A stretch of DNA of 64,000 nt from PVC group bacterium (lineage in GTDB: Bacteria > Omnitrophota > Gorgyraeia > B26-G9). A program made the position numbers and the translations under genes. Positions 3,962 through 54,491 of this stretch are shown here, piece by piece. The notes beneath the pieces are model-generated. The model made no database searches and was not told where the DNA came from. It saw only the letters and a list, made by a program, of their open reading frames with translations. Position 1 is the stretch's first letter; every line of letters begins with the position of its first letter. The DNA lies in contig JAAEQR010000072.1 in assembly GCA_024231215.1 (NCBI GenBank), positions 129,210 through 193,209 on the forward strand. The letters run 5' to 3'.

Positions 3962-4604
3962 CGGGTCTGATGTTGTTGAATCCTTCTTCTATTACACCCA
4001 GAGCCGCAATGTCTTTGAGAATATTTTCCGCTTGGAGATTGTTGGGAGTGATTTCTAAAATCATTCTTGCTGTAAGTGTAGCTTTTGAATAGTCTTTTTC
4101 TGAAAAATAGATGTTGGCAAGTAATATTAGGGTTTTGAGATGATTTCTATTAATAAGCATGACTTCTTCAAGCGCAGTTTTTGCATGTTTTGTTTTATTC
4201 TGTTGCATGAAAAATGTTGCTAATTTATAGAAAGCTGATGTATTATCAGGATTAAGCAGTATGATTTGTTCCTGAATGGAAATAATAGATTTTTTTTTGC
4301 TTAATAAGATAGCATAAGTAACTTCTACGTTTAAAATAAAGGTTTGGATTATTTCCTTTATAAACGTTATTATCGAGAAAGAAGAAGATTTCTTTTTTTC
4401 TCTGGCAGTTGTCCAGAGGTTATGCAGGCAGGGAGTGTAGTCAGGATTAGTTGATAAAACCTGTTGAAATAACTCAAGAGCATAAGCATAATTTTTTTTC
4501 TTTAAGGCGGAAATGCCTTTTTCGTAGAACTGATTATCCTGTGCAGAAAGCATAGTATTATTCATGATATATAGTATTGTAGAGGAAACAGCGGTAGTTG
4601 TCAA
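3954..4604 (-). CDS. TPR-repeat protein
   Basis: Only substantial minus-strand ORF in this region. Contains repeated A-x-x-x-F/Y...NP TPR-like units. No catalytic motif. Confidence 0.45.
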   Translation of the reverse strand: MTTTAVSSTILYIMNNTMLSAQDNQFYEKGISALKKKNYAYALELFQQVLSTNPDYTPCLHNLWTTAREKKKSSSFSIITFIKEIIQTFILNVEVTYAILLSKKKSIISIQEQIILLNPDNTSAFYKLATFFMQQNKTKHAKTALEEVMLINRNHLKTLILLANIYFSEKDYSKATLTARMILEITPNNLQAENILKDIAALGVIEEGFNNIRPAT

Positions 4605-4626: not shown

Positions 4627-5571
4627 ATGAAAATTGTTTTTTTTGGGTCTTCGGAATTTGCCGTAGCCAGTTTGAATATGTTATTTAAATCACATGATGT
4701 CATGGCTATTGTTACTCAGCCGGACCGGGAAAAAGGCCGTAAACTACAGTTAAGTAAAACCCCGGTTAAAATTTGTGCGCAAAAAAATGACATAGAGATA
4801 TATCAGCCGGAAGATATTTGTGCAGAAGAAGCAATATCTAAACTTAAGAGCTATAATGCCGATTTATTTGTGGTGGTAAGTTTTGGCAGGATTTTAACTA
4901 AAGAAGTTTTAGAAATTCCTAAACTCTATTGTATTAATGTTCATGCTTCTTTGCTGCCGCGTTGGCGGGGCGCTTCTCCAGTCAACCGGGCAATCATAAA
5001 TAAAGACCAGACCACCGGCGTTAGTATTATCAGAATGAATGAACTTATGGATGCTGGGGATATATTGCTAACTAAGAGCTTGGAGATTGACCCGGAAGAT
5101 GATGCGGTTATTCTTATGCAAAAACTAGGAGGGCTAGGGGCAGAGGCGCTTTTAGAGGCGGTTAAAGTAATAGAAGGTGAGAAGGTTAGTTTTATCCAGC
5201 AGGATGAGACTTTAGTTACTATTGCTCATAAATTAAAAAAAACAGATGGGTTGATTGATTGGCAGGAAGAAGCTGAGTGTATTCATAATAAAGTTCGTGG
5301 GTTACTTCCTTGGCCGTGTGCTTATACATATTATAAAGGAAAGTTTCTTAAAATTCTTAAAACAAGGGTTGTTTGTCCTACTTCTGAACAGAAAGAGTAT
5401 TCTTCGGGAGAAATAATAGTCGCGGATCAGAAAGAGGGGATAAGTGTGGCTACGGGTAAAGAAATAATTGTGATTGAAATGTTACAACCAGAAGGTAAAC
5501 GAGTTATGTCTGCACAGGATTTTTTATTGGGGCATAAGGTTATAGTAGGAGATAAATTATGCCAGAGTTAA
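4627..5571 (+). CDS. fmt: methionyl-tRNA formyltransferase
   Basis: N-terminal MKIVFFGS...F formyltransferase fold, a HASLLPRWRG motif, and a C-terminal Fmt domain. Confidence 0.85.
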   Translation: MKIVFFGSSEFAVASLNMLFKSHDVMAIVTQPDREKGRKLQLSKTPVKICAQKNDIEIYQPEDICAEEAISKLKSYNADLFVVVSFGRILTKEVLEIPKLYCINVHASLLPRWRGASPVNRAIINKDQTTGVSIIRMNELMDAGDILLTKSLEIDPEDDAVILMQKLGGLGAEALLEAVKVIEGEKVSFIQQDETLVTIAHKLKKTDGLIDWQEEAECIHNKVRGLLPWPCAYTYYKGKFLKILKTRVVCPTSEQKEYSSGEIIVADQKEGISVATGKEIIVIEMLQPEGKRVMSAQDFLLGHKVIVGDKLCQS

Positions 5572-27290: not shown

Positions 27291-27377
27291 GCGGAGATGG
27301 TGGAATTGGCAGACACGCTAGCTTGAGGGGCTAGTGGGAGCAATCTCATGAGGGTTCAAGTCCCTCTCTCCGCACCA
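27291..27377 (+). tRNA. tRNA-Leu (anticodon GAG)
   Basis: Acceptor stem GCGGAGA/TCTCCGC. Anticodon stem CTAGC/GCTAG with loop TTGAGGG. Long variable arm, T-loop GGTTCAAGTCC, encoded CCA. Confidence 0.85.
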
Positions 27378-27853: not shown

Positions 27854-29494
27854 TTGACAGATTTTTATAAGAAATTACAATATGCCAGCCTAATTTTGAT
27901 CATCTTTTCATGTATTTCCCCCGTAAGTGCCCAAGAAGAGACATTTCTAAAAACCAAAATTGAAAAAATTGGTAATTCTAAGCGAAGTGAAATTAATCAG
28001 ATAAATCAGGTATTACGTAATCTGGATATTCCCAAAGAAATAGGTATGGTTAAAGAAACTTATATGCCTCGCAGTCCGAAGGCTAATCTTATTATTACAA
28101 TTCAGGATTTACATTGCCATTATCAAGCCCAAAAAAACATTGCTGCTATACTAAATTATCTTACTAATAATTTTGCGTTAAAACTTATCAGTATTGAAGG
28201 GGGCGCAGGTCCGATCGATACGGTGTTTTACCGTGAGTTGCCGGATGAAAGAATCAAAGAACAGGTAGCAGAATATTTTTTAAAAGAAGCTCGTATTAAC
28301 GGTACAGAGTATTTTGCGATAACGACAAATAAAGAAATTGCGCTTTATGGAGCTGAAGATTCTAAATATTATGATTGGAATTTAGAGGCGTTTTTAGATG
28401 CTTTGCCGAAACGGGAAAAAATACTTAAAGATGTTGCGGTTTTAGAAAATGCACTGAATATCTTGAAAGATCGTATATATAATAAGCGGTTAAAAGAATT
28501 AGATAATTATATAGTTGCTTATGAAAATAAAACGATATCATTTGAAGACTATATTTTAAATATAGAAAAACAGTATTCTAAGACTAAACTAATTAGAGAT
28601 TTTAAGCAGGTTGCTCAACTTGCCGAAAGTATTCATATAAAAAGAGAAGTTAATTTGGTAGCAGCAGAAAAACAACGAGGTGAATTAATTGATTATTTAT
28701 CAACAAAATTGCCCAGGAGAGAATTAGAAGAATTTTTACGAATCACTTTAGAGTTTAAGACCAAGACGGTAAAGGCATCGGAGTATCATAGTAAACTGAA
28801 AGAACTTTATGAGAAGACTATTGAAAAAACAAAGACTTTTGAACAGAATTGGCCGGATCTTAGTGAATATATCGTTTATTTGGATAAATATGAGACGTTG
28901 GATGATATTGAGCTTTTTAATGAAATAGATAAAGCTTTGGATGGAATAAAAAATAGTCTATATACAAGTTATACTCAAAAAAAGTTAGACCGAAATTTAA
29001 CAATAATACGCTTAGCGAGAAACCTTTTCTCCACAAAATTACTGCCACGGGATTTGCCGATAATCGATAAATATCGTAATGAGTTCAATGCGAAAAAAAT
29101 GGCTAAATTTATTAAACGTCAATCAAGAAGATTAACCCTTGATTTGCCGGTTCCAGCAGAATTAGAAGATATAGAAGATACTTTGCCGATGGTGGAAGAT
29201 TTTTATTATTATGCTTCACAGCGTAATGAAATTTTAGTAGACAATACTCTGGCATATATGAAGAAAGAAAACCAAGATGTGGGAATATTAATAACCGGTG
29301 GTTTTCATACCGATGGGATAACCGAGGATTTACGCGATAAACGTATTCCGTATGTTGTAGTAATTCCTCAAATAGATGCTCTTGAAGAGAATGATACTCG
29401 TTATATTGATGCCCTGAAGGGAAAAAAGACCCGTTTTGAAACAATGTTGGAAGGGGCAACTGATTCTGTACGAGATTTCTATTTTGGGAAGTAA
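27854..29494 (+). CDS. exported TraB/GumN/TIKI-family protein (putative)
   Basis: TTG start preceded by GGGGGAG. Signal peptide present. C-terminal VGILITGGFHTDGITEDLRDKRIPYVVV resembles the TraB/GumN GxxHLxG...V motif. Confidence 0.35.
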   Translation: MTDFYKKLQYASLILIIFSCISPVSAQEETFLKTKIEKIGNSKRSEINQINQVLRNLDIPKEIGMVKETYMPRSPKANLIITIQDLHCHYQAQKNIAAILNYLTNNFALKLISIEGGAGPIDTVFYRELPDERIKEQVAEYFLKEARINGTEYFAITTNKEIALYGAEDSKYYDWNLEAFLDALPKREKILKDVAVLENALNILKDRIYNKRLKELDNYIVAYENKTISFEDYILNIEKQYSKTKLIRDFKQVAQLAESIHIKREVNLVAAEKQRGELIDYLSTKLPRRELEEFLRITLEFKTKTVKASEYHSKLKELYEKTIEKTKTFEQNWPDLSEYIVYLDKYETLDDIELFNEIDKALDGIKNSLYTSYTQKKLDRNLTIIRLARNLFSTKLLPRDLPIIDKYRNEFNAKKMAKFIKRQSRRLTLDLPVPAELEDIEDTLPMVEDFYYYASQRNEILVDNTLAYMKKENQDVGILITGGFHTDGITEDLRDKRIPYVVVIPQIDALEENDTRYIDALKGKKTRFETMLEGATDSVRDFYFGK

Positions 29495-29704
29495 GTTCTG
29501 CGATAATCTGCTCAAAATTTGACCTATTAGTGTAACGAGTTGAAATAAAAAGAGTTACTGCCGAATTTTTTATTCAAAAACCTCCTGTATAGTATTGAAA
29601 ATAATATAAATATATGATATACTTTAATATCTTTTTTAACTTCGAAGAAAAAGTTCCTAACATGTTTATTTTATTTGAGTTAACTGTTTAGCAGAAATAA
29701 GGTT

Positions 29705-30451
29705 ATGAAATTAGTCCAAAATAGAAAATTTAGCTGGGTTCTCAGATTTAGCGTAATGCTGCTTATCCAGGCAGTGTTGACGGTAAATACTGTCTGGGCA
29801 AGTTTGGACAGTAATACCTTGGCACCTAGACTTGCGGTTAATATAGAAAGTTTTAAAGAGAAAATAGCAGTTTCTAGAATAACTTTAGATAAGTATTTAC
29901 AAAAAGAAGAGAAGCGAAGGGTACGGGCAGAAAAGCGTCAGAGAGAAAAGCTGGAGAGGAAAAAAGAAGCTGCCGAACTTAAAGGTGAGTATGAAAAATA
30001 TAAAAAATATACTATTGGTGATCTTAGAAAAAAACTTAAGCTGGGTAAGGAAATATTAGTATCGAATTTTCAGATAGTTCCGGGCATAGGTAATATTCGA
30101 GCAGCTGTTATTGGCAATGAAGTATTACTTAGAAGTCAGAATGCAACATTATGGCTTACATTTCGGTATGATGGGACAGAGATTTTTATCGGAGGTAAAA
30201 AGTTTTACAGAATTGAGAATGAAAATGTTTTGGTAGATGATGACAATTATGAAAATAGAATAAAACTGGAACAAGTTGGAAATCGACTTATTCTTGATTT
30301 AGATAAAATAACTGGGAATAAAGATATAGATAGATTTTTTGGACGAAAGAAACAAAAAGCAACAACTGAATTATCAGAAGGATTAATTAAAGATAGGATC
30401 CCGGATACACCTGAGGAGTTGTTAGGTTTATTGCTGGAACAGGCGATATAG
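29705..30451 (+). CDS. exported hypothetical protein
   Basis: Signal peptide ...VMLLIQAVLTVNTVWAS shares the MLIQ..T.NTVWA core with the next gene. No known domain. Confidence 0.4.
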   Translation: MKLVQNRKFSWVLRFSVMLLIQAVLTVNTVWASLDSNTLAPRLAVNIESFKEKIAVSRITLDKYLQKEEKRRVRAEKRQREKLERKKEAAELKGEYEKYKKYTIGDLRKKLKLGKEILVSNFQIVPGIGNIRAAVIGNEVLLRSQNATLWLTFRYDGTEIFIGGKKFYRIENENVLVDDDNYENRIKLEQVGNRLILDLDKITGNKDIDRFFGRKKQKATTELSEGLIKDRIPDTPEELLGLLLEQAI

Positions 30452-30471
30452 TTGGTTAATAGTGAGAGTAG

Positions 30472-32652
30472 TTGATAGTTATGAATAGAAATTCCAGAAT
30501 AATAGTTAAATTAGTGATTATCATGCTTATACAGATGATGATGACGGGGAATACTGTCTGGGCTTTGTCTCCTCATATACAAGTGCAAAATGCAGAGATG
30601 AGAAATGTATTTACTGACTCTGCTATTGATCAGGCACTTGAATATGAAAGAAAAATTCATGAAGAACTCAAACAAGAATTTGACAAGTCAAGAATTTGCA
30701 ATTTACCTAATAGGCAAAGATTTTTAGAAGATTTAGTCGAGGATCTGGATCAGGGGAAAAAGATTCAGGCGGTATATCTTAATATTCAAAATTTCAAGGG
30801 GGAATTTAATGATTTTGGGGATGCTTTGGATGAACTGGCAAAGTGGTATAAACAGGATAAAATGAGTGTTATTGGACATGAATTTGGCGATTTTGGGATT
30901 CAGGCTGTTGCTGAGTATTTGACAACATCGTTAAGGCAGATGCTGGGACAGACAGGGAATAGTAATGTCACATTCAAGATTTATAATGATGCAAAAAGTT
31001 TCTGGGTTATATTTGAGGATTTACCGGACTGGTTTGATGCTAAAGAAATTTTAGTTAAACTTCTGTCAGATGATTTTGCTTTTAAAAGTAATGTGGTTAA
31101 GAGAATTAAACAACGTATGGAAGAAAGAATTCAAAACAAAGAGCAAACAGGAGAAGTTGATTTAGTAAAAGCTAAAAAATTGAGAAATAGAATGAAAGAA
31201 TTTAATGAAAATAATTTTAATATCTATGCAGGTGTTTCCCAATTATTTACTCGCCAGAAAAATCAGAGTATTATTGCTACAGCTCATACTATAGATTCAC
31301 AGGTTCTTTTAGCTGCAAAATTTGCGCAGTTTAATTTGATAAATCATGATTTGGCAGCTGAGCAGAAAAAAAGGGTTAATGATGAAGAAGGACTGAAACA
31401 GTGGTTGAGGGGGGTTGTAGCAGAGTGTCGTGAGGCAAGAAAAAGCCGGGTAGAATCGTTTAACTTGGACTTGAGAAAGAAAGTGAGATTATACAAAAAA
31501 TATGGTCAAAGAGAAGAGTTGGAATCGATTTATACCCCTATTAAACAAGTATACGATGATGCCAATACTTATAAAAAACTTATGCAGAGATATGAAGCAG
31601 CATTGGAGACTAAAGATATTAATTTGATAAAAGAAGTTAAAAAAAATGCTTTCTGGAAGATGGTTGTATATCCTTTGGGTGATTTTTTAGATGGAATTGC
31701 AGCCAGACCAATATTCTCAGGAAATCAGAGAGTTGCGGATATGATAAATCATATAGTATTAAATCAGCCAGACCGGAATTGGTCAGGTACGTTTAAAATT
31801 GGTGGGGATGAATTTGTTAAGATAGTATGGGAAGCTGGAGAAGATAGATTATATAGTTATATTTACAGTTTTGATGTGAATAATTTAGGTCGAACTAATA
31901 TTCAATGGGGGGTAAGAGTTGGCGATATGCTTTTAGATACTATGGTCTGGCTGTTTGATGAACTGGAAAACCCAGATATGGAATATATCTATAAGTTTTT
32001 CCGGAACGAGAATAAAAAAGTAAAGAATTTTCGTGATTTAAATGTAGAGATTACAGCGAATGACTATGCATATCTTAGGGTGATGATGTCGGAAAATGGC
32101 AGAGATATTGAGGACTATACTTATACTAGAGATGGTAAGTACTATTTAGAACAAATACCTCCGGTACGGGTAGAAGTAGAAGATGAAAAGACAGGTGAAA
32201 TGACAGAGTATTATTCTACGCCTTTTGCGGCAATAGGTATGGTTCATGTTGATACGAAAGTAGTGCACAGGGCAAAATTAAGTAATGCTGAACCATTTAA
32301 TATCTACAGAAATTACGGTCCGGTACGTGGTCGTGCTGATAGTGCTTCATTAAGGGTAAAGGAATTTATAAAAAAATATCAACTTTATAATGGCGGAAAT
32401 GTTTCTCCTGATGCTCTTAAGAAAGCGAAAAGAAGGATGGAAGCTGACGCTTTGGAAGAAAAAGCTATTATTACGTTTAAAGAAGAAAAAATGTCGTTAT
32501 TGCAAAGAGAATTAGCAGAGTTTATTTTTGCACATTATGTTGAGCTTTCTGACCCGAGCAATAGTTCAAGAGATCAGGATGCGAATATTATTACCCAGGA
32601 TCATTTAAACGGGATGGAAGTGTCGTCTGAGTTGTGTGAACAGGCGATTTAA
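30472..32652 (+). CDS. large exported or membrane-anchored hypothetical protein containing a literal GGDEF motif
   Basis: Signal/anchor ...IIMLIQMMMTGNTVWAL. Internal ...GNQRVADMINHIV...FKIGGDEFVKIV and an earlier NIQNFKGEFNDFGDALDEL segment weakly resemble GGDEF-domain blocks. Confidence 0.35.
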   Translation: MIVMNRNSRIIVKLVIIMLIQMMMTGNTVWALSPHIQVQNAEMRNVFTDSAIDQALEYERKIHEELKQEFDKSRICNLPNRQRFLEDLVEDLDQGKKIQAVYLNIQNFKGEFNDFGDALDELAKWYKQDKMSVIGHEFGDFGIQAVAEYLTTSLRQMLGQTGNSNVTFKIYNDAKSFWVIFEDLPDWFDAKEILVKLLSDDFAFKSNVVKRIKQRMEERIQNKEQTGEVDLVKAKKLRNRMKEFNENNFNIYAGVSQLFTRQKNQSIIATAHTIDSQVLLAAKFAQFNLINHDLAAEQKKRVNDEEGLKQWLRGVVAECREARKSRVESFNLDLRKKVRLYKKYGQREELESIYTPIKQVYDDANTYKKLMQRYEAALETKDINLIKEVKKNAFWKMVVYPLGDFLDGIAARPIFSGNQRVADMINHIVLNQPDRNWSGTFKIGGDEFVKIVWEAGEDRLYSYIYSFDVNNLGRTNIQWGVRVGDMLLDTMVWLFDELENPDMEYIYKFFRNENKKVKNFRDLNVEITANDYAYLRVMMSENGRDIEDYTYTRDGKYYLEQIPPVRVEVEDEKTGEMTEYYSTPFAAIGMVHVDTKVVHRAKLSNAEPFNIYRNYGPVRGRADSASLRVKEFIKKYQLYNGGNVSPDALKKAKRRMEADALEEKAIITFKEEKMSLLQRELAEFIFAHYVELSDPSNSSRDQDANIITQDHLNGMEVSSELCEQAI

Positions 32653-34980: not shown

Positions 34981-35436
34981 ATGGAAAATAAGGTTATTGC
35001 GAGGAATAAAACGGCATTCCATCGCTACGATATCATTGAAAAAATCGAAGCAGGTATTGCTCTTAAAGGCACGGAAGTGAAGTCGCTTCGTAAGCATAAT
35101 GTTGATTTAAAAGACAGTTATGCCAGGGTCTCTAACGGTGAAGTATTTATTCACAATATGTATATAACTCCTTATGAAGAAGCTAGTTATAACAATGAAG
35201 AACCGCGACGTATTCGTAAGCTTTTATTGCATAAAAGAGAAATAGACAAACTCCTGGGTAAAGTACACCAGAAGAGCCTGACTATAATTCCGTTAAGCTT
35301 GTATTTTAATAATAAAGGAAAAGCTAAAATTGAACTGGCTGTGGCTAAAGGCCGGAAGATATATGACCAAAGGGAAAAGATAAAGAAGAAGGAAGTAGAA
35401 ATACAGTTACGCAAAGTCCAGAGTTTTAGAAAATAA
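34981..35436 (+). CDS. smpB: SsrA-binding protein
   Basis: Collinear with SmpB (…FHRYDIIEKIEAGIALKGTEVKSLR…). 151 aa. Immediately upstream of the tmRNA. Confidence 0.9.
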   Translation: MENKVIARNKTAFHRYDIIEKIEAGIALKGTEVKSLRKHNVDLKDSYARVSNGEVFIHNMYITPYEEASYNNEEPRRIRKLLLHKREIDKLLGKVHQKSLTIIPLSLYFNNKGKAKIELAVAKGRKIYDQREKIKKKEVEIQLRKVQSFRK

Positions 35437-35522
35437 TAGGTTCTTTGAAATCACAATACCTTTTTATATTAATTACGTTTTTTGGATTTTATTTTGTTGT
35501 TAATTTGTAATTTTTGTATTGG

Positions 35523-35954
35523 GGGGGTGAAAGGTTTCGACTTAGGTTAATTTAGTAAGAGCAGCATGTCGAGGTGGTCGGGAGGCCTCGTAAAACACCT
35601 GACAAACACATAAACGCTGAAAGTAAAATTCCAGCTAGCGTAGATTCACTCATTTCAAAAATTGGTGAGGGTATTTCTCATCCGGTTTTTGGAGGAATGG
35701 CTCTAAGCCCAAGTGTTGCTTTAAGATAAAGCAACCCGCTTTTTAGTGAGTGTCTGTGGCATTAAAAAGCGTCATAAGCAGGCTCGTTAAATATGGTTAG
35801 TTTTTGACATATTTGATTAAACATTTCAAAAGCTGCCTTTGCAAGTATCTTGTTTGTCGGAGACTTGTTGAGAAAGATTAAATGACAGACTAAACATGTA
35901 GATACTCTTATTGGTTTCTTAAGGACGCGGGTTCAATTCCCGCCACCTCCACCA
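35523..35954 (+). ncRNA. ssrA: tmRNA (ssrA)
   Basis: 5' GGGGGUG pairs with 3' CACCUCC-ACCA, with a G3-U70 wobble. 3' tRNA-like end GGACGCGGGTTCAATTCCCGCCACCTCCACCA. Candidate resume codon GCU at 35616. Confidence 0.85.
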
Positions 35955-40939: not shown

Positions 40940-41460
40940 AAAAACTGAACGGAATATTAGCAAAAAATAAAATTAAAGATTTGCGTTGTGGGCAGGAAGT
41001 ATTATATACAGGGATGATATATACAGCTCGTGATCAGGCACACAAACGTTTTAGTGAGATGTTGCGTAAAGGTAAAAAGTTGCCGGTGGATATAAAGGAA
41101 CAAATCATTTATTATTGCGGACCGAATCCTGCTGCAAAGGGAAAGGTTATTGGATCTTGCGGGCCGACAACATCAAGTCGCATGGATGAATTAACTCCGG
41201 TATTATTGAAAAACGGATTAAGAGCAATGATTGGCAAGGGGGAGCGTTCTAAAGAAGTAGTTGCGGCAATAAAACAATATAAAGCAGTTTATTTTACGAC
41301 CTATGCAGGGTGTGGAGCATTACTATCTGGCCGTGTGAAAAAGAAAAAAACTGTTTGTTTTAAAGATTTGGGAGCAGAGGCAGTATTTGCTTTAGAAGTC
41401 GAAGATTTTCCGTTGATTGTAGCGATTGATGCTTGTGGAGGTAACATTTATGACAAATAG
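40936..41460 (+). CDS. class I fumarate hydratase, beta/C-terminal subunit
   Basis: [15 protein letters not shown] ... YYCGPNPA pattern of FumA C-domain / TtdB. 174 aa. Stop overlaps the alpha-subunit gene. Confidence 0.75.
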
Positions 41461-42172
41461 AAGTTCAGATACATTAAGAGAAGTAAAAATCACCAGAAAT
41501 TTCATGAAACATGCTGATGGATCATGTTTAATTGAGATAGGTGATACCCGGGTAATTTGTACCGCAACTTGTGAAAATAAAGTCCCGCCTTTTTTAAAGG
41601 ATCAGGGAGTTGGATGGGTTACTGCAGAATATGGAATGTTACCAGGATCTTGTAAGGGCCGAATTCCTCGAGAATCAAGCCGGGGTAAAGTAGGAGGCAG
41701 AACGCAGGAAATTCAAAGGTTGATTGGCAGGTCATTGCGGGCGGTGATTGACTTTGAGAAATTAGGAGAAAGAACAGTTTGGATAGATTGTGATGTGATC
41801 CAGGCTGATGGCGGGACTCGTACGGCATCGATAACTGGCAGTTTTATTGCCTTAGTTGATGCTTTAGTTTCTTTGCAGCAAAATGGTAAGATAACTGTTT
41901 TGCCGGTGAAAGAATTTGTAGCTGCAACTAGCGTGGGTATTGTAAAGGGAGAGCCGGTGTTAGATCTGGATTATTCCCTTGATTCAACTGCTGATGTTGA
42001 TATGAATATAGTTATGACTTCGACCGGAAAGTTTATAGAAATTCAGGGGACGGCTGAAAAAGAACCTTTTGACCAAAAGCGTTTAAGGGAATTATTAGAC
42101 TTGGCCCAAAAAGGTATCAGCGAATTAATAGAGCAGCAGAGAAAAGTTTTAGACGGTATAAAGATAGGTTAA
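41450..42172 (+). CDS. rph: ribonuclease PH
   Basis: [31 protein letters not shown], collinear with RNase PH. ATG at 41450 overlaps the fumB stop. Confidence 0.85.
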
Positions 42173-46886: not shown

Positions 46887-47447
46887 ATGAGTGCAAAAGA
46901 GATACTTACTAAGTCAGAAGATAAGATGGGGAAATCTGTTGAAGTATCAACCAGGGAGTTTAGTACTATAAGAACCGGCAGGGCAAGTGCGGCGTTGGTA
47001 GAAGGTATTCGAGTGGATTATTATGGAACTCCGACTCCTTTAAAACAGCTAGCTGGTGTTTCTACTCCGGAAGCGCGTTTGATTGTAATTCAGCCATGGG
47101 ATCCATCTTGTATTGGCGATATTGAGAAAGCTATTTTAAAGTCAGAATTGGGTATTACTCCATCTAATGATGGGAAAGTAATTCGTTTAAGTGTACCGCC
47201 CTTGACTAAAGAACGCAGAGCGGAGCTGGTTAAGGTTGTTCATAAGCTAACTGAGGAAGGCCGTATTTCGATACGTGGTGTTAGACGAGAGGCAAATGAA
47301 CAGATAAAGCAGGAAGAAAAAAAGAGTAGTATTACCGAAGACGAAAGTTTTAAAGCTCAGGAAGATGTCCAAAAGCTTACGGATAAATATATAAAGCAGT
47401 TAGAAGATTTTTCAAAGAAAAAAGAATCTGAAATAATGGAAGTTTAA
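46887..47447 (+). CDS. frr: ribosome recycling factor
   Basis: Collinear with RRF (…EFSTIRTGRASAALVEGIRVDYYG…). 186 aa. Confidence 0.9.
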   Translation: MSAKEILTKSEDKMGKSVEVSTREFSTIRTGRASAALVEGIRVDYYGTPTPLKQLAGVSTPEARLIVIQPWDPSCIGDIEKAILKSELGITPSNDGKVIRLSVPPLTKERRAELVKVVHKLTEEGRISIRGVRREANEQIKQEEKKSSITEDESFKAQEDVQKLTDKYIKQLEDFSKKKESEIMEV

Positions 47448-47453
47448 ATGTGT

Positions 47454-47529
47454 GGGCCGCTAGCTCAGTTGGCAGAGCATCGCCCTTTTAAGGCGGGTGT
47501 CGAAGGTTCGAGCCCTTCGCGGCTCACCA
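47454..47529 (+). tRNA. tRNA-Lys (anticodon TTT)
   Basis: Acceptor GGGCCGC/GCGGCTC. Anticodon stem TCGCC/GGCGG with loop CTTTTAA. T-loop TTCGAGC. Encoded CCA. Confidence 0.85.
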
Positions 47530-47683
47530 TATTAATACTTCCAAGGGTTCGAATCGAAGTTGAACGCCGAGCAAGTGCGAGGAAAAGCGAGCAGGACTGT
47601 GAGCGGCAGTGAAACGAGGCGGGCCTGCGCAGCTCTCAACAGGAAGTTGTGAGCGTAGTAGGCGAGCCCTTCGCGGCTCACCA
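47530..47683 (+). repeat. tRNA-associated GC-rich element X (copy 1, ~133 nt) plus 21-nt duplicate of the tRNA-Lys 3' end (positions 56-76)
   Basis: CGAGCCCTTCGCGGCTCACCA(TA) occurs at the end of tRNA-Lys and again at 47663-47683. The intervening sequence is about 90% identical to the element after tRNA-Val. Confidence 0.8.
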
Positions 47684-47696
47684 TACATTCTGTTGC

Positions 47697-47774
47697 GTCC
47701 CCATCGTCTAGCCAGGTCTAGGACAGTAGATTTTCGATCTACCGACAGGGGTTCAAATCCCCTTGGGGACGCCA
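47697..47774 (+). tRNA. tRNA-Glu (anticodon TTC)
   Basis: Acceptor GTCCCCA/TGGGGAC + G. Anticodon stem GTAGA/TCTAC with loop TTTTCGA. T-loop TTCAAATCC. Collinear with typical bacterial tRNA-Glu. Confidence 0.8.
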
Positions 47775-47782
47775 AAAAATTA

Positions 47783-47812
47783 AGGTCACTCGAAAGAGTG
47801 GCCTAATTTTTT
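47783..47812 (+). terminator. rho-independent terminator after the tRNA-Lys/tRNA-Glu cluster (A-tract upstream, possibly bidirectional)
   Basis: AGGTCACTC-gaaa-GAGTGGCCT followed by AATTTTTT. Confidence 0.6.
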
Positions 47813-47984
47813 GTTCGGACACAAGGGGATGGTCAAAAGGGTCTACGGGGAAAAGACTGTTTTTCCCGTTCGGCGTACTGGAGCCCAAAACGGAAAGAAA
47901 AGGAACAGCGACCGAAGGGAGCGATAGGGAAAAACCATAAGGGTTTTTCTCTATGGAGTGATCTCGCCAAAGGCGGGAGAACGA

Positions 47985-48062
47985 CTCCCCTGGGGACGTT
48001 GATTGCTTATTGCGAAATCACGACGTTCAAATCCCCTTGCGACACGACCCCCTGGGGACGTC
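47985..48062 (+). repeat. scattered partial duplicates of the tRNA-Glu 3' end
   Basis: CTCCCCTGGGGACG and GTTCAAATCCCCTT...CCCCTGGGGACGTCA match the tRNA-Glu T-arm/acceptor (GGGGTTCAAATCCCCTTGGGGACGCCA). Confidence 0.6.
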
Positions 48063-48301
48063 AAAATTACATGTGATGCTTTTAAGTTTCATCTTAACCA
48101 TTGACTTTTACGACGACTAATCATAAAATAAACTTAAATTATGTTAAACCCGAACTATGCATTAGGCTGCGGCGAATAGCATTAATCTTTGCCATACCAC
48201 AGAGGGGATGCCTGTATTTTTTGTAAGTATTTTATCTCAAAAATCTTAGCACTCTTCATCCGCCTTCTAATACATAATCCGGGTTAATAAAGAGGTAAGT
48301 T

Positions 48302-54048: not shown

Positions 54049-54097
54049 GGGTTGACAAACAAAAAGAAATATTGTAAACTTTAAACTCTAACTACAA

Positions 54098-54174
54098 GGG
54101 CGCGTGGCACAGTTGGTTAGAGCACCTCCCTTACAAGGAGGGGGTCGTAGGTTCGAGTCCTACCGCGCCCACCA
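54098..54174 (+). tRNA. tRNA-Val (anticodon TAC)
   Basis: Acceptor GGGCGCG/CGCGCCC. Anticodon stem CCTCC/GGAGG with loop CTTACAA. T-loop TTCGAGT. Encoded CCA. Confidence 0.8.
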
Positions 54175-54326
54175 TGAGTTTACCTGACGGACTCGAATCG
54201 AGTTGAGCGCCGAGCAGGTGCGAGGAAAAGCGAGCAGGACTGTGAGCGAAAGCGAAACGAGGCGGGCCTGCGCAGCGAACAACAGGAAGTTGTGAGTGTA
54301 GTAGGCGAGTCCTACCGCGCCCACCA
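54175..54326 (+). repeat. tRNA-associated GC-rich element X (copy 2) plus 21-nt duplicate of the tRNA-Val 3' end (positions 56-76)
   Basis: CGAGTCCTACCGCGCCCACCA(T) occurs at the end of tRNA-Val and again at 54306-54326. The core ...TCGAATCGAGTTGAGCGCCGAGCAGGTGCGAGGAAAAGCGAGCAGGACTGTGAGCG... is shared with copy 1. Confidence 0.8.
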
Positions 54327-54376
54327 TTTTCCCAGTAAGGGGAAATAGTTCGATACAAATATAAGACTAAATTTTT

Positions 54377-54454
54377 GGAGCCGTAGTTCAGCTGGTTTAG
54401 AACGTCGGACTGTCGATCCGAAGGTCGCGGGTTCGAACCCCGTCGGCTCCGCCA
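54377..54454 (+). tRNA. tRNA-Asp (anticodon GTC)
   Basis: Acceptor GGAGCCG/CGGCTCC. Anticodon stem TCGGA/TCCGA with loop CTGTCGA. T-loop TTCGAAC. Encoded CCA. Confidence 0.8.
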
Positions 54455-54462
54455 TAAATATA

Positions 54463-54491
54463 CCTTCATCCGAAAGGATGAGGGTTTTTTC
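54463..54491 (+). terminator. rho-independent terminator after tRNA-Asp
   Basis: CCTTCATCC-gaaa-GGATGAGGG followed by TTTTTT. Confidence 0.65.

Follow-up and report, generated by a model that had tools for sequence, protein, structure and literature searches.

A small non-coding repeat in tRNA-operon spacers of an Omnitrophota bacterium carries its host tRNA's tail at its end and resembles E. coli RtT in design

In E. coli MG1655, 159 nt separate each tRNA-Tyr from a 19-nt copy of its own tail starting in the T-loop, an arrangement with a 178-nt period; the annotated rttR begins 8 nt behind the tRNA, and its last nucleotides are precisely the duplicated CCA. In the Rfam consensus of this RNA (RtT), an upstream motif, GGGGAAGGAU, pairs with the T-stem part of the tRNA copy in a helix that closes the RNA, and a ...CCACCACCA tail is left over. 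RtT has for long been regarded as an isolated peculiarity of tyrT, its origin and function unsettled. In tRNA-integrating elements, the classical T-loop-type att footprint is likewise a direct repeat that spans a tRNA from the T-loop to its 3' end. In addition, 3'ETS-leuZ of E. coli is a small RNA derived from a tRNA spacer (reviewed in PMC8166272; RNase E maps in PMC5222698).

The stretch of DNA analyzed here (the window) comprises 64,000 nt of contig JAAEQR010000072.1 (GCA_024231215.1), positions 129,210-193,209 of the + strand, and stems from the MAG of a PVC group bacterium of Candidatus Omnitrophota. A first-pass annotation of the window had pointed to a tRNA-Lys whose tail recurs behind a GC-rich insert, and had considered a miniature integrative element, a deletion remnant or a structured small RNA co-transcribed with the tRNAs; it had proposed an Rfam scan, a covariance analysis and searches for further copies, a cognate integrase and unoccupied tRNA-Lys alleles. 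The tRNA genes in the window were called with ARAGORN and Rfam, and the features of the locus are as follows.

47409-47437, + strand: promoter-like site TTTTCA-17-AATAAT with TG, 16 nt 5' of tRNA-Lys (consensus match only)
47454-47529, + strand: tRNA-Lys (UUU), CCA encoded (ARAGORN, Rfam; 62.3 bits)
47509-47531, + strand: direct repeat copy 1, tRNA-Lys positions 56-76 plus TA (exact repeat)
47530-47567, + strand: AT-rich trailer and left part of the element, aligning with the Lys-Glu spacer of the relative L095
47543-47553, + strand: AAGGGTTCGAA, antisense to the T-loop and T-stem 3' strand of tRNA-Lys, with equivalents at the Val and L088-Gly copies
47545-47550, + strand: 5' strand of the proposed closing helix P1 (three-sequence alignment)
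47568-47662, + strand: family-1 core (by homology), G+A-rich and GC-rich (60% GC, 67% purine), ending in GTAGTAGG
47623-47663, + strand: predicted 3' hairpin, P3 (47623-47628 / 47658-47663) around P4 (47637-47640 / 47646-47649), all cells paired in 3 sequences
47663-47685, + strand: direct repeat copy 2, tRNA-Lys C56-CCA plus TA (exact repeat), with T54/T55 missing before it
47664-47669, + strand: 3' strand of the proposed P1, inside direct repeat copy 2
47697-47774, + strand: tRNA-Glu (UUC), operon gene 2, 13 nt after repeat copy 2 (ARAGORN)
47783-47804, + strand: predicted terminator-like hairpin with T run, end of the Lys-Glu unit
47815-48066, + strand: second, different element 3' of tRNA-Glu, with homologues in L002, L003, L099, L103 and L105

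The results showed that the 21-mer CGAGCCCTTCGCGGCTCACCA, which corresponds to tRNA-Lys positions 56-76, occurs exactly twice in the 64-kb window (47509-47529 and 47663-47683), with no third match even at 3 mismatches, and that 0 of 100 dinucleotide shuffles gave a match when 3 mismatches were permitted. Since TA follows both copies, the exact direct repeat is 23 nt and not 21 nt long (47509-47531 / 47663-47685), and the recurrence of the tRNA tail that had been reported is thus both exact and longer than described. The insert between the copies (47530-47662, 133 nt) was likewise correctly described as richer in GC than its surroundings (54% versus 37.1% for the whole window), and its final 95 nt reach 60% GC and 67% purine. 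As also stated earlier, the insert contains no ORF of note: there is no coding signal, the sole ORF of at least 80 aa being a TTG-start, minus-strand frame that overlaps the tRNAs, and no conserved reading frame is open throughout the three copies of the family described below. The first ~38 nt of the insert (47531-47567) match the short Lys-Glu spacer of L095, the closest relative obtained (GlmS 83% identical), at 30 of 34 aligned positions, so that the lineage-specific extra is mainly the ~95-nt core and the tRNA copy. An empty Lys-Glu allele would read tRNA-Lys directly onto TACATTCTGTTGC-tRNA-Glu.

The genetic context spans rpsB, tsf, pyrH, frr, tRNA-Lys, tRNA-Glu, genes for a patatin-like protein and an AsmA-family protein, nagA, glmS, tRNA-Val, tRNA-Asp and a gene for a DeoC-family aldolase, and the neighboring protein genes are of housekeeping type by Pfam scan. 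The tRNA genes here encode CCA. RNase PH, an enzyme that trims tRNA 3' ends, is encoded in the window at 41426-42172. Among 59 ORFs that cover the 64-kb window, Pfam scans detected neither an integrase or other recombinase nor a transposase or reverse transcriptase; the cognate integrase whose search had been proposed is thus not among them.

For all tRNAs of the window and of related loci, the downstream DNA was searched for a copy of the tRNA's own 3' end, and this revealed a second copy of the element in the window, located behind tRNA-Val.

54052-54080, + strand: predicted promoter-like site TTGACA-17-TAAACT, 5' of tRNA-Val
54098-54174, + strand: tRNA-Val (UAC), host of family-1 copy 2 (ARAGORN, Rfam)
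54175-54305, + strand: family-1 copy 2, insert of 131 nt, with 91% identity to the Lys copy over a 113-nt core
54189-54197, + strand: antisense motif GGACTCGAA of the Val copy, exact against tRNA-Val
54306-54327, + strand: tRNA-Val C56-CCA plus T, 22 nt exact, CGAGTCCTACCGCGCCCACCAT (host-tail search)
54377-54454, + strand: tRNA-Asp (GUC), gene 2 of the Val operon (ARAGORN)
54462-54485, + strand: predicted terminator-like hairpin after tRNA-Asp

From TCGAATCGA through GTAGTAGG, the Lys and Val inserts are identical at 103 of 113 positions, and this high identity begins only at the antisense T-loop and not at the tRNA end. A single-shot scan of metagenome contigs with an exact 19-mer from the core, which would miss diverged copies, returned 11 loci, of which only L088 is a true family-1 member; this copy adjoins tRNA-Gly(UCC) and its core is 75-79% identical to those of the window copies. 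The genome collection was also scanned in a single shot, and a covariance model of the three copies detected no further family-1 member in 437 kb of Omnitrophota loci. The family-1 sequence set consists of these three copies (the window Lys and Val copies and the L088 Gly copy), and the two additional ones answer the proposed search for further copies. Together, these data identify the insert with its 21-nt repeat as a member of a family of small repeats, non-coding and non-autonomous, in tRNA-operon spacers, and family 1 has clearly spread among tRNA operons.

All family-1 copies have the same layout, that is, an AT-rich trailer, a motif of 9-11 nt antisense to the host tRNA, a G+A-rich core of ~95 nt ending in GTAGTAGG and, finally, the host tRNA from C56 to CCA. 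The right junction is common to 3 of 3 copies, with ...GAG(C/T)GTAGTAGG followed directly by C56 of the 3' end of the own host, and in all three both T residues of the T-loop (TT) are missing before the distal tail. The flanking repeats match the host: each copy has the version of its own tRNA (Lys, Val or Gly), all three share no more than CGA and CCA, and the duplicated length differs from copy to copy (23 nt in Lys, 22 nt in Val and 18 nt in the L088 Gly copy). At L088, the functional tRNA-Gly lacks an encoded CCA and the distal tail copy has one. All three copies are oriented as their tRNA and there is one unit per locus, with no tandem family-1 units in the window. Both window copies lie between a promoter-like site, the weaker of the two being that of Lys, and a terminator-like hairpin, with no terminator between the two tRNAs of an operon. 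Since these sites bracket both tRNA pairs, both copies are predicted to be sense internal transcribed spacers of two-tRNA operons.

Each family-1 copy carries, ~11-75 nt after the tRNA, a short reverse complement of the T-loop and T-stem 3' strand of its own host. The motif is exact in the Val copy (GGACTCGAA) and in the L088 Gly copy (GGGATCGAA, against its own tRNA-Gly), and the Lys motif GGGTTCGAA matches the window tRNA-Lys at 8 of 9 positions and the T-arm variant of L095 exactly. In the predicted helix P1, it would pair with the opening 6-9 nt of the distal tRNA copy; 6 pairs of P1 are kept in 3 of 3 members, and its two variable positions track the host tRNA (GC/AU/GU and UG/CG/AU). In the three-sequence alignment, P1, P3 and P4 together account for 16 pairs with 48 of 48 cells paired, 4 of the 16 having changed on both sides, whereas partners slid by 1-3 columns leave only 29-52% of cells paired. 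Of 500 column shuffles of these same three sequences, 14 reached the observed covariation. In any single copy the 7-9-bp closing helix is not significant, 19-71% of shuffles equaling it, and predicted folding is only weakly better than that of shuffled sequences (z -1.2 to -2.1). Since the host tRNA is the source of the two P1 strands, their pairing could come from a DNA-level origin without selection on an RNA. A purine-rich core is unusual for a compact structured RNA. The antisense helix was not supported as a general feature of tail-copy elements, no significant helix having been found in the family at L037, L040 and L042 or in L012. The motif also stands by itself, with neither core nor tRNA copy, in the Lys-Glu spacer of L095 (45 nt) and in the Val-Asp spacer of L103 (GGACTCGA); either the antisense motif is older than the core or these are remnants of lost elements. 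Such bare motifs are not predicted by an RtT-like model.

Synteny around the locus is kept in related Omnitrophota, and the family-1 element is absent there. Unoccupied alleles of the kind proposed earlier were present in seven related loci (L001, L003, L095, L099, L100, L103 and L105), where the Lys-Glu spacers measure 15-95 nt and hold no tRNA-Lys copy; in L098 the Val-Asp spacer is empty as well (35 nt), and that of L100 is occupied by something else, namely an ORF whose product belongs to the 23S rRNA intervening-sequence protein family. Other tail-copy elements occur in the phylum. In L037, L040 and L042, tRNA-Lys is followed by a GC-rich insert of ~150 nt belonging to a second family, with tail copies of 24-26 nt that are identical to each species' own tRNA-Lys, although these tRNAs differ from one another and the cores have diverged. 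Exact own-tRNA tails beside diverged cores require continuous conversion or selection. L012 has yet another core, followed by a 16-nt tail copy. The element behind tRNA-Glu in the window begins antisense to the tRNA-Glu T-arm and ends in sense copies of the tRNA-Glu 3' end, which are degenerate in the window (47987-47999, 48025-48039 and 48048-48066); the antisense match in its L105 homologue covers 24 of 25 nt. Successive units, two in L042 and two in L099, have other cores than family 1. One L099 unit has GTGAGTGGACCGCAGTGAAACGA in common with family 1, and this shared sequence suggests that the element types are related. With annotated tRNA genes masked and an exact match of at least 14 nt to the own 3' 26 nt counted within 450 nt downstream, cognate tail copies were found for 8 of 127 tRNAs against 0.28 expected from a control with non-cognate tRNA ends, and antisense T-arm 9-mers numbered 8 against 1.55 expected, counts that do not represent independent events because the loci are orthologous sets. 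Partial copies of tRNAs, derived from either end, are frequent in the tRNA flanks of Omnitrophota, as are palindromic spacers, introns and genes for homing endonucleases.

The proposed Rfam scan returned no family for the element, at gathering score or at E<=10, and matches to ylbH, sR17 and Clostridiales-2 were rejected as far below their thresholds. The element had no match in phage and plasmid collections (blastn), and the core 19-mer returned nothing from viral contigs; GC-rich 20-mer matches to two phage capsid genes of 68% GC were judged to be chance. The marks of a MITE or IS-derived element are not seen: there are no intrinsic terminal inverted repeats (only the host-derived motif of 7-9 nt), and the duplications are 18-23 nt long rather than short and of fixed length. 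In L001, a gene for a RAYT-like Y1 transposase (PF01797, E=2e-15; NF047646, 71.5 bits, below the 80-bit cutoff) lies directly 3' of tRNA-Glu and is associated with 13-bp inverted repeats, TAGGGACAGCGAC. The 64-kb window has no RAYT gene, and GGAACAGCGAC occurs in it once, at 47902 within the tRNA-Glu element; this sequence is not enriched and is absent from family 1. The common motif ACAGCGAC is too short, and not enriched, to tie the element to RAYT, and this connection was kept as a lead only.

With about even confidence, we favor reading the element as an RtT-like tRNA trailer that is co-transcribed with the tRNAs and whose family has spread among tRNA operons. This is the small-RNA option among those first proposed, and it is preferred for the predicted operon position and the RtT/RttR-like layout. 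What follows on transcription of the element, its processing, any function of its RNA and the route of its spread is inferred. The element would be transcribed together with tRNA-Lys and tRNA-Glu as the internal spacer of their operon. The antisense motif would pair with the first 6-9 nt of the tail copy and so close the element, and the rest of the acceptor strand with the CCA would make up a 3' tail resembling that of a tRNA. Nucleases active in tRNA 3'-end trimming, RNase PH of the window being one, could free an RNA of ~145 nt ending in CCA, and this release would leave a normal leader for tRNA-Glu. With regard to spread, the junction falls in the conserved T-loop in every copy, which points to T-loop-seeded recombination or template switching. 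Weak folding, the lack of significance of the helix in single copies and the lack of similarity to RtT in sequence or model speak against the RtT-like reading.

Four other explanations were weighed. The identical 3' junction at three different tRNAs, next to duplications of 23, 22 and 18 nt, is what would be left by a mobile DNA or RNA element that used a nick in the T-loop, duplicated its target and relied on an enzyme acting in trans, its transcription being incidental. One cut would be fixed at 55/56, the other would fall 18-23 nt downstream, and gap repair would duplicate the tRNA 3' end; the enzyme might be a reverse transcriptase (target-primed), a Cas1-like integrase or an HUH/Y1 transposase. 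We consider this unlikely, although several observations agree with it: the L088 CCA is present only in the distal copy, as if insertion had occurred just after the discriminator base, the left side before the conserved part varies from 11 to 75 nt, relatives have empty sites, L042 and L099 contain successive units, and L001 has its RAYT-like Y1 transposase directly 3' of tRNA-Glu. However, the 59 window ORFs include no reverse transcriptase, transposase or integrase, and terminal inverted repeats are absent beyond the short host-derived motif. The antisense motif is host-specific and yet internal, not at the edge, and the mobile-element model would therefore need a later correction. In addition, a Lys/Val identity that starts at the antisense T-loop fits gene conversion of older copies equally well, and a connection to RAYT is seen just once, in a different genome, through a motif of 8-11 nt that family 1 lacks. 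If the element is neutral spacer debris, to which we give a rather low probability, the tail would have been duplicated by slippage or unequal exchange at the T-loop, conversion from the neighboring tRNA would have kept the tails identical, ectopic conversion would have homogenized the cores between loci, and the RNA would have no role. The tRNA flanks of the phylum are indeed cluttered with partial tRNA copies, palindromes, introns and homing-endonuclease genes, the tRNA-Glu copies downstream in the window are decaying, the evidence for structure is modest, and the elements are easily lost in relatives. On the other hand, the tails in L037, L040 and L042 match their own, differing tRNA-Lys despite diverged cores, the same junction and a conserved core recur at three tRNA species in two samples, and the parallel case in E. 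coli gives an annotated RNA.

The two remaining explanations start from the att-like geometry. A CIME-like miniature integrative element, mobilized by a tyrosine or serine integrase encoded elsewhere through recombination of a circle's attP with the tRNA T-loop into attL and attR, would account for the direct repeat from T-loop to tRNA 3' end and for the empty sites in relatives. The first-pass annotation had read the geometry correctly, and the view of the insert as a miniature mobile element stands insofar as there is a repeat family at three tRNAs with empty sites; integrase-driven behavior does not stand, and neither does attL/attR, with no shared attP, TT absent and 0 of 59 ORFs encoding an integrase. 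The distal T-loop lacks TT in 3 of 3 copies, which would leave a 5-nt "overlap", and with flanks that differ between the Lys, Val and Gly copies, the members lack an attP identity block in common. The window likewise has no integrase, there is no phage or plasmid match, the matches on viral contigs are due to chance, and the antisense motif goes unexplained, which makes this explanation very improbable. Single-crossover circle models, worked through by hand with exchange in the T-loop or at the CCA, predict either a tRNA that is part Lys and part Val or a distal copy taken from a non-cognate tRNA; neither was seen. Apart from the attL/attR-like geometry, nothing recommends a deletion remnant of a large island or prophage in tRNA-Lys, another option considered at first. 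The same unit, with inserts of 133 and 131 nt, a core that is 91% identical and the same junctions, is found at two loci, a third copy occurs in another sample, and no remnant of a phage or island gene is present; since independent random deletions would not converge on one discrete unit, this origin is effectively refuted.

A broader proposal, which we regard as doubtful, is that RtT and the Omnitrophota elements form one unrecognized, phylum-spanning class of non-autonomous "tRNA-trailer hitchhikers". Such elements would place new copies of themselves behind different tRNA genes by a T-loop-targeted route, with a nick at 55/56 and target-primed or Cas1-like insertion; every insertion would make a fresh cognate tail, and expression would yield an RNA whose CCA end resembles that of a tRNA. 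The RtT architecture is now seen with unrelated sequence in a distant uncultured phylum and at no fewer than four tRNA species, and this turns a curiosity into a workable comparative problem, namely whether the tail is a signal for processing or stability, whether it is an insertion footprint, and which enzyme, if any, goes along with it. In practical terms, short repeats of tRNA tails should not automatically be annotated as att sites of degraded islands.

Compared with known systems, the element shares with phage and island T-loop att sites the direct repeat from the T-loop to the tRNA 3' end and an intact tRNA on one side, but its insert is ~100x smaller, has no integrase, and has repeats that vary by member and a truncated distal T-loop. 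As in eukaryotic SINE insertions, the 3' junction is precise and the target duplication is of variable length; unlike SINEs, no reverse transcriptase (in the window) or A-rich tail was found. Like REP/RAYT repeats, it is short, non-autonomous and intergenic, with a Y1 transposase nearby in one relative, but it contains no REP-type palindrome of fixed sequence and the RAYT link is limited to one genome. RNAs of the 3'ETS-leuZ type are also non-coding by-products of tRNA maturation, made from the transcribed spacers or trailers of tRNA operons, as the RNA proposed here would be; in contrast to the element, they are ordinary spacer, act as base-pairing sponges, have no tRNA 3' copy and form no repeat family. 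The closest system is RtT of the E. coli tyrT/tyrV operons (rttR, RF00391). The covariance model of RF00391, at a match threshold of 45 bits, gave four matches of 133-138 bits in E. coli as positive control, and no match in the window at gathering score or, on 47300-48300, at E<=10. Homology to E. coli RtT was not supported, with local alignment scores within the shuffled range; because RF00391 gives no match and the alignments are no better than those of shuffles, the element is not filed as an RtT member. Family-1 units are single and located at three tRNA species, whereas in E. coli units of 178 nt follow one another in tandem at one tRNA species only; the junction lies at C56 here and at A58 in E. 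coli, the Omnitrophota element has no conserved small ORF like tpr, and its host is very distant from Enterobacteria. The likeness to RtT is a resemblance of design, homology not being demonstrated. Both are located directly 3' of a tRNA inside a tRNA operon, whose transcription is predicted here, both are GC- and purine-rich units of ~130-160 nt, both have an upstream motif that is antisense to the T-stem part of the tail copy and forms a closing helix (predicted here), and both end in the tail of the upstream tRNA, from T-loop to CCA, over 19 nt in E. coli and 21 nt here.

Downstream of tRNA-Glu, the second gene of the predicted Lys-Glu operon, the window holds a further element, which is distinct from the GC-rich one that follows tRNA-Lys:

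Window 47815-48066: second, distinct element, 3′ of the tRNA-Glu terminator.

At its 5′ start is a motif antisense to the T-arm of tRNA-Glu, and a conserved hairpin (ATAGGGAAAAACC...GGTTTTTCTCTAT) lies within the element. After the element, the 3′ end of tRNA-Glu recurs in three degenerate copies, which read CCCCTGGGG as against CCCCTTGGGG in tRNA-Glu itself. Homologues of the element were found at five loci of related Omnitrophota (L002, L003, L099, L103 and L105), and the one-T variant of the window copies is also present in the copies at L099 and L105. At another related locus, L001, the position directly 3′ of tRNA-Glu is taken by a transposase gene:

L001 5026-5697 (on one contig with L102 1547-2221): gene for a RAYT-like transposase of the Y1 (IS200-like) type.

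This gene is bracketed by exact 13-bp inverted repeats (TAGGGACAGCGAC), and the ACAGCGAC motif of the locus recurs both in the cores of the second element family (L037/L040/L042), which lies after tRNA-Lys, and at window 47902-47912.

Three of the compared loci showed other changes at tRNA-Lys:

L021 5491-5746 and L036 5536-5802: tRNA-Lys(UUU) with a group I intron (RF00028, 92.5 and 79 bits, respectively).
L021 4572-5420 and L036 4627-5490: ORF with a LAGLIDADG domain (PF14528), just 5′ of the intron-split tRNA-Lys.
L042, about 4631-4766: two 68-nt units in tandem, directly 5′ of tRNA-Lys.

The intron splits the anticodon loop in the Omnitrophota genomes of both L021 and L036, and in L036 a duplicate of a 5′ fragment of tRNA-Lys (about 4565-4593) lies ahead of the LAGLIDADG-domain ORF. 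Since the 5′-terminal 17 nt of tRNA-Lys open each of the L042 units, fragments of the tRNA 5′ end are duplicated besides those of the 3′ end.

In relatives, small insertions of other kinds were located at the same tRNA flanks, which appear to be insertion hot spots:

L100 12134-12616: ORF of the 23S rRNA intervening-sequence protein family, between tRNA-Val and tRNA-Asp.
L105 5599-5862: 87-aa GIY-YIG ORF, 3′ of the tRNA-Glu element.

Many inter-tRNA spacers in Omnitrophota (L002, L029, L036, L099, L100) are long AT-rich near-palindromes composed of short repeated words, as in L100 (AGTAGTAAGTTTTAAGTC...GACTTAAAACT), and L029 carries a tandem 29-nt repeat, broken by a run of N, 3′ of tRNA-Glu. 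The L097 contig, which belongs to the second-closest relative (GlmS 82%), stops within the tRNA-Val T-stem (2785-2838; …GGTCGTAGG), just 5′ of the T-loop; this end might be an assembly break at a repeat, counting neither for nor against.

Two further window loci were considered:

Window 27854-32652: three consecutive ORFs of 546, 248 and 726 aa, 3′ of tRNA-Leu(GAG) (27291-27377).
Window 34981-35954: smpB, directly followed by a full-length tmRNA gene (RF00023, 182.8 bits).

The three ORFs gave no significant Pfam match, and their surroundings yielded no copy of the 3′ end of tRNA-Leu. No tRNA-tail copy follows the tmRNA gene, and the smpB-tmRNA order is the ordinary arrangement.
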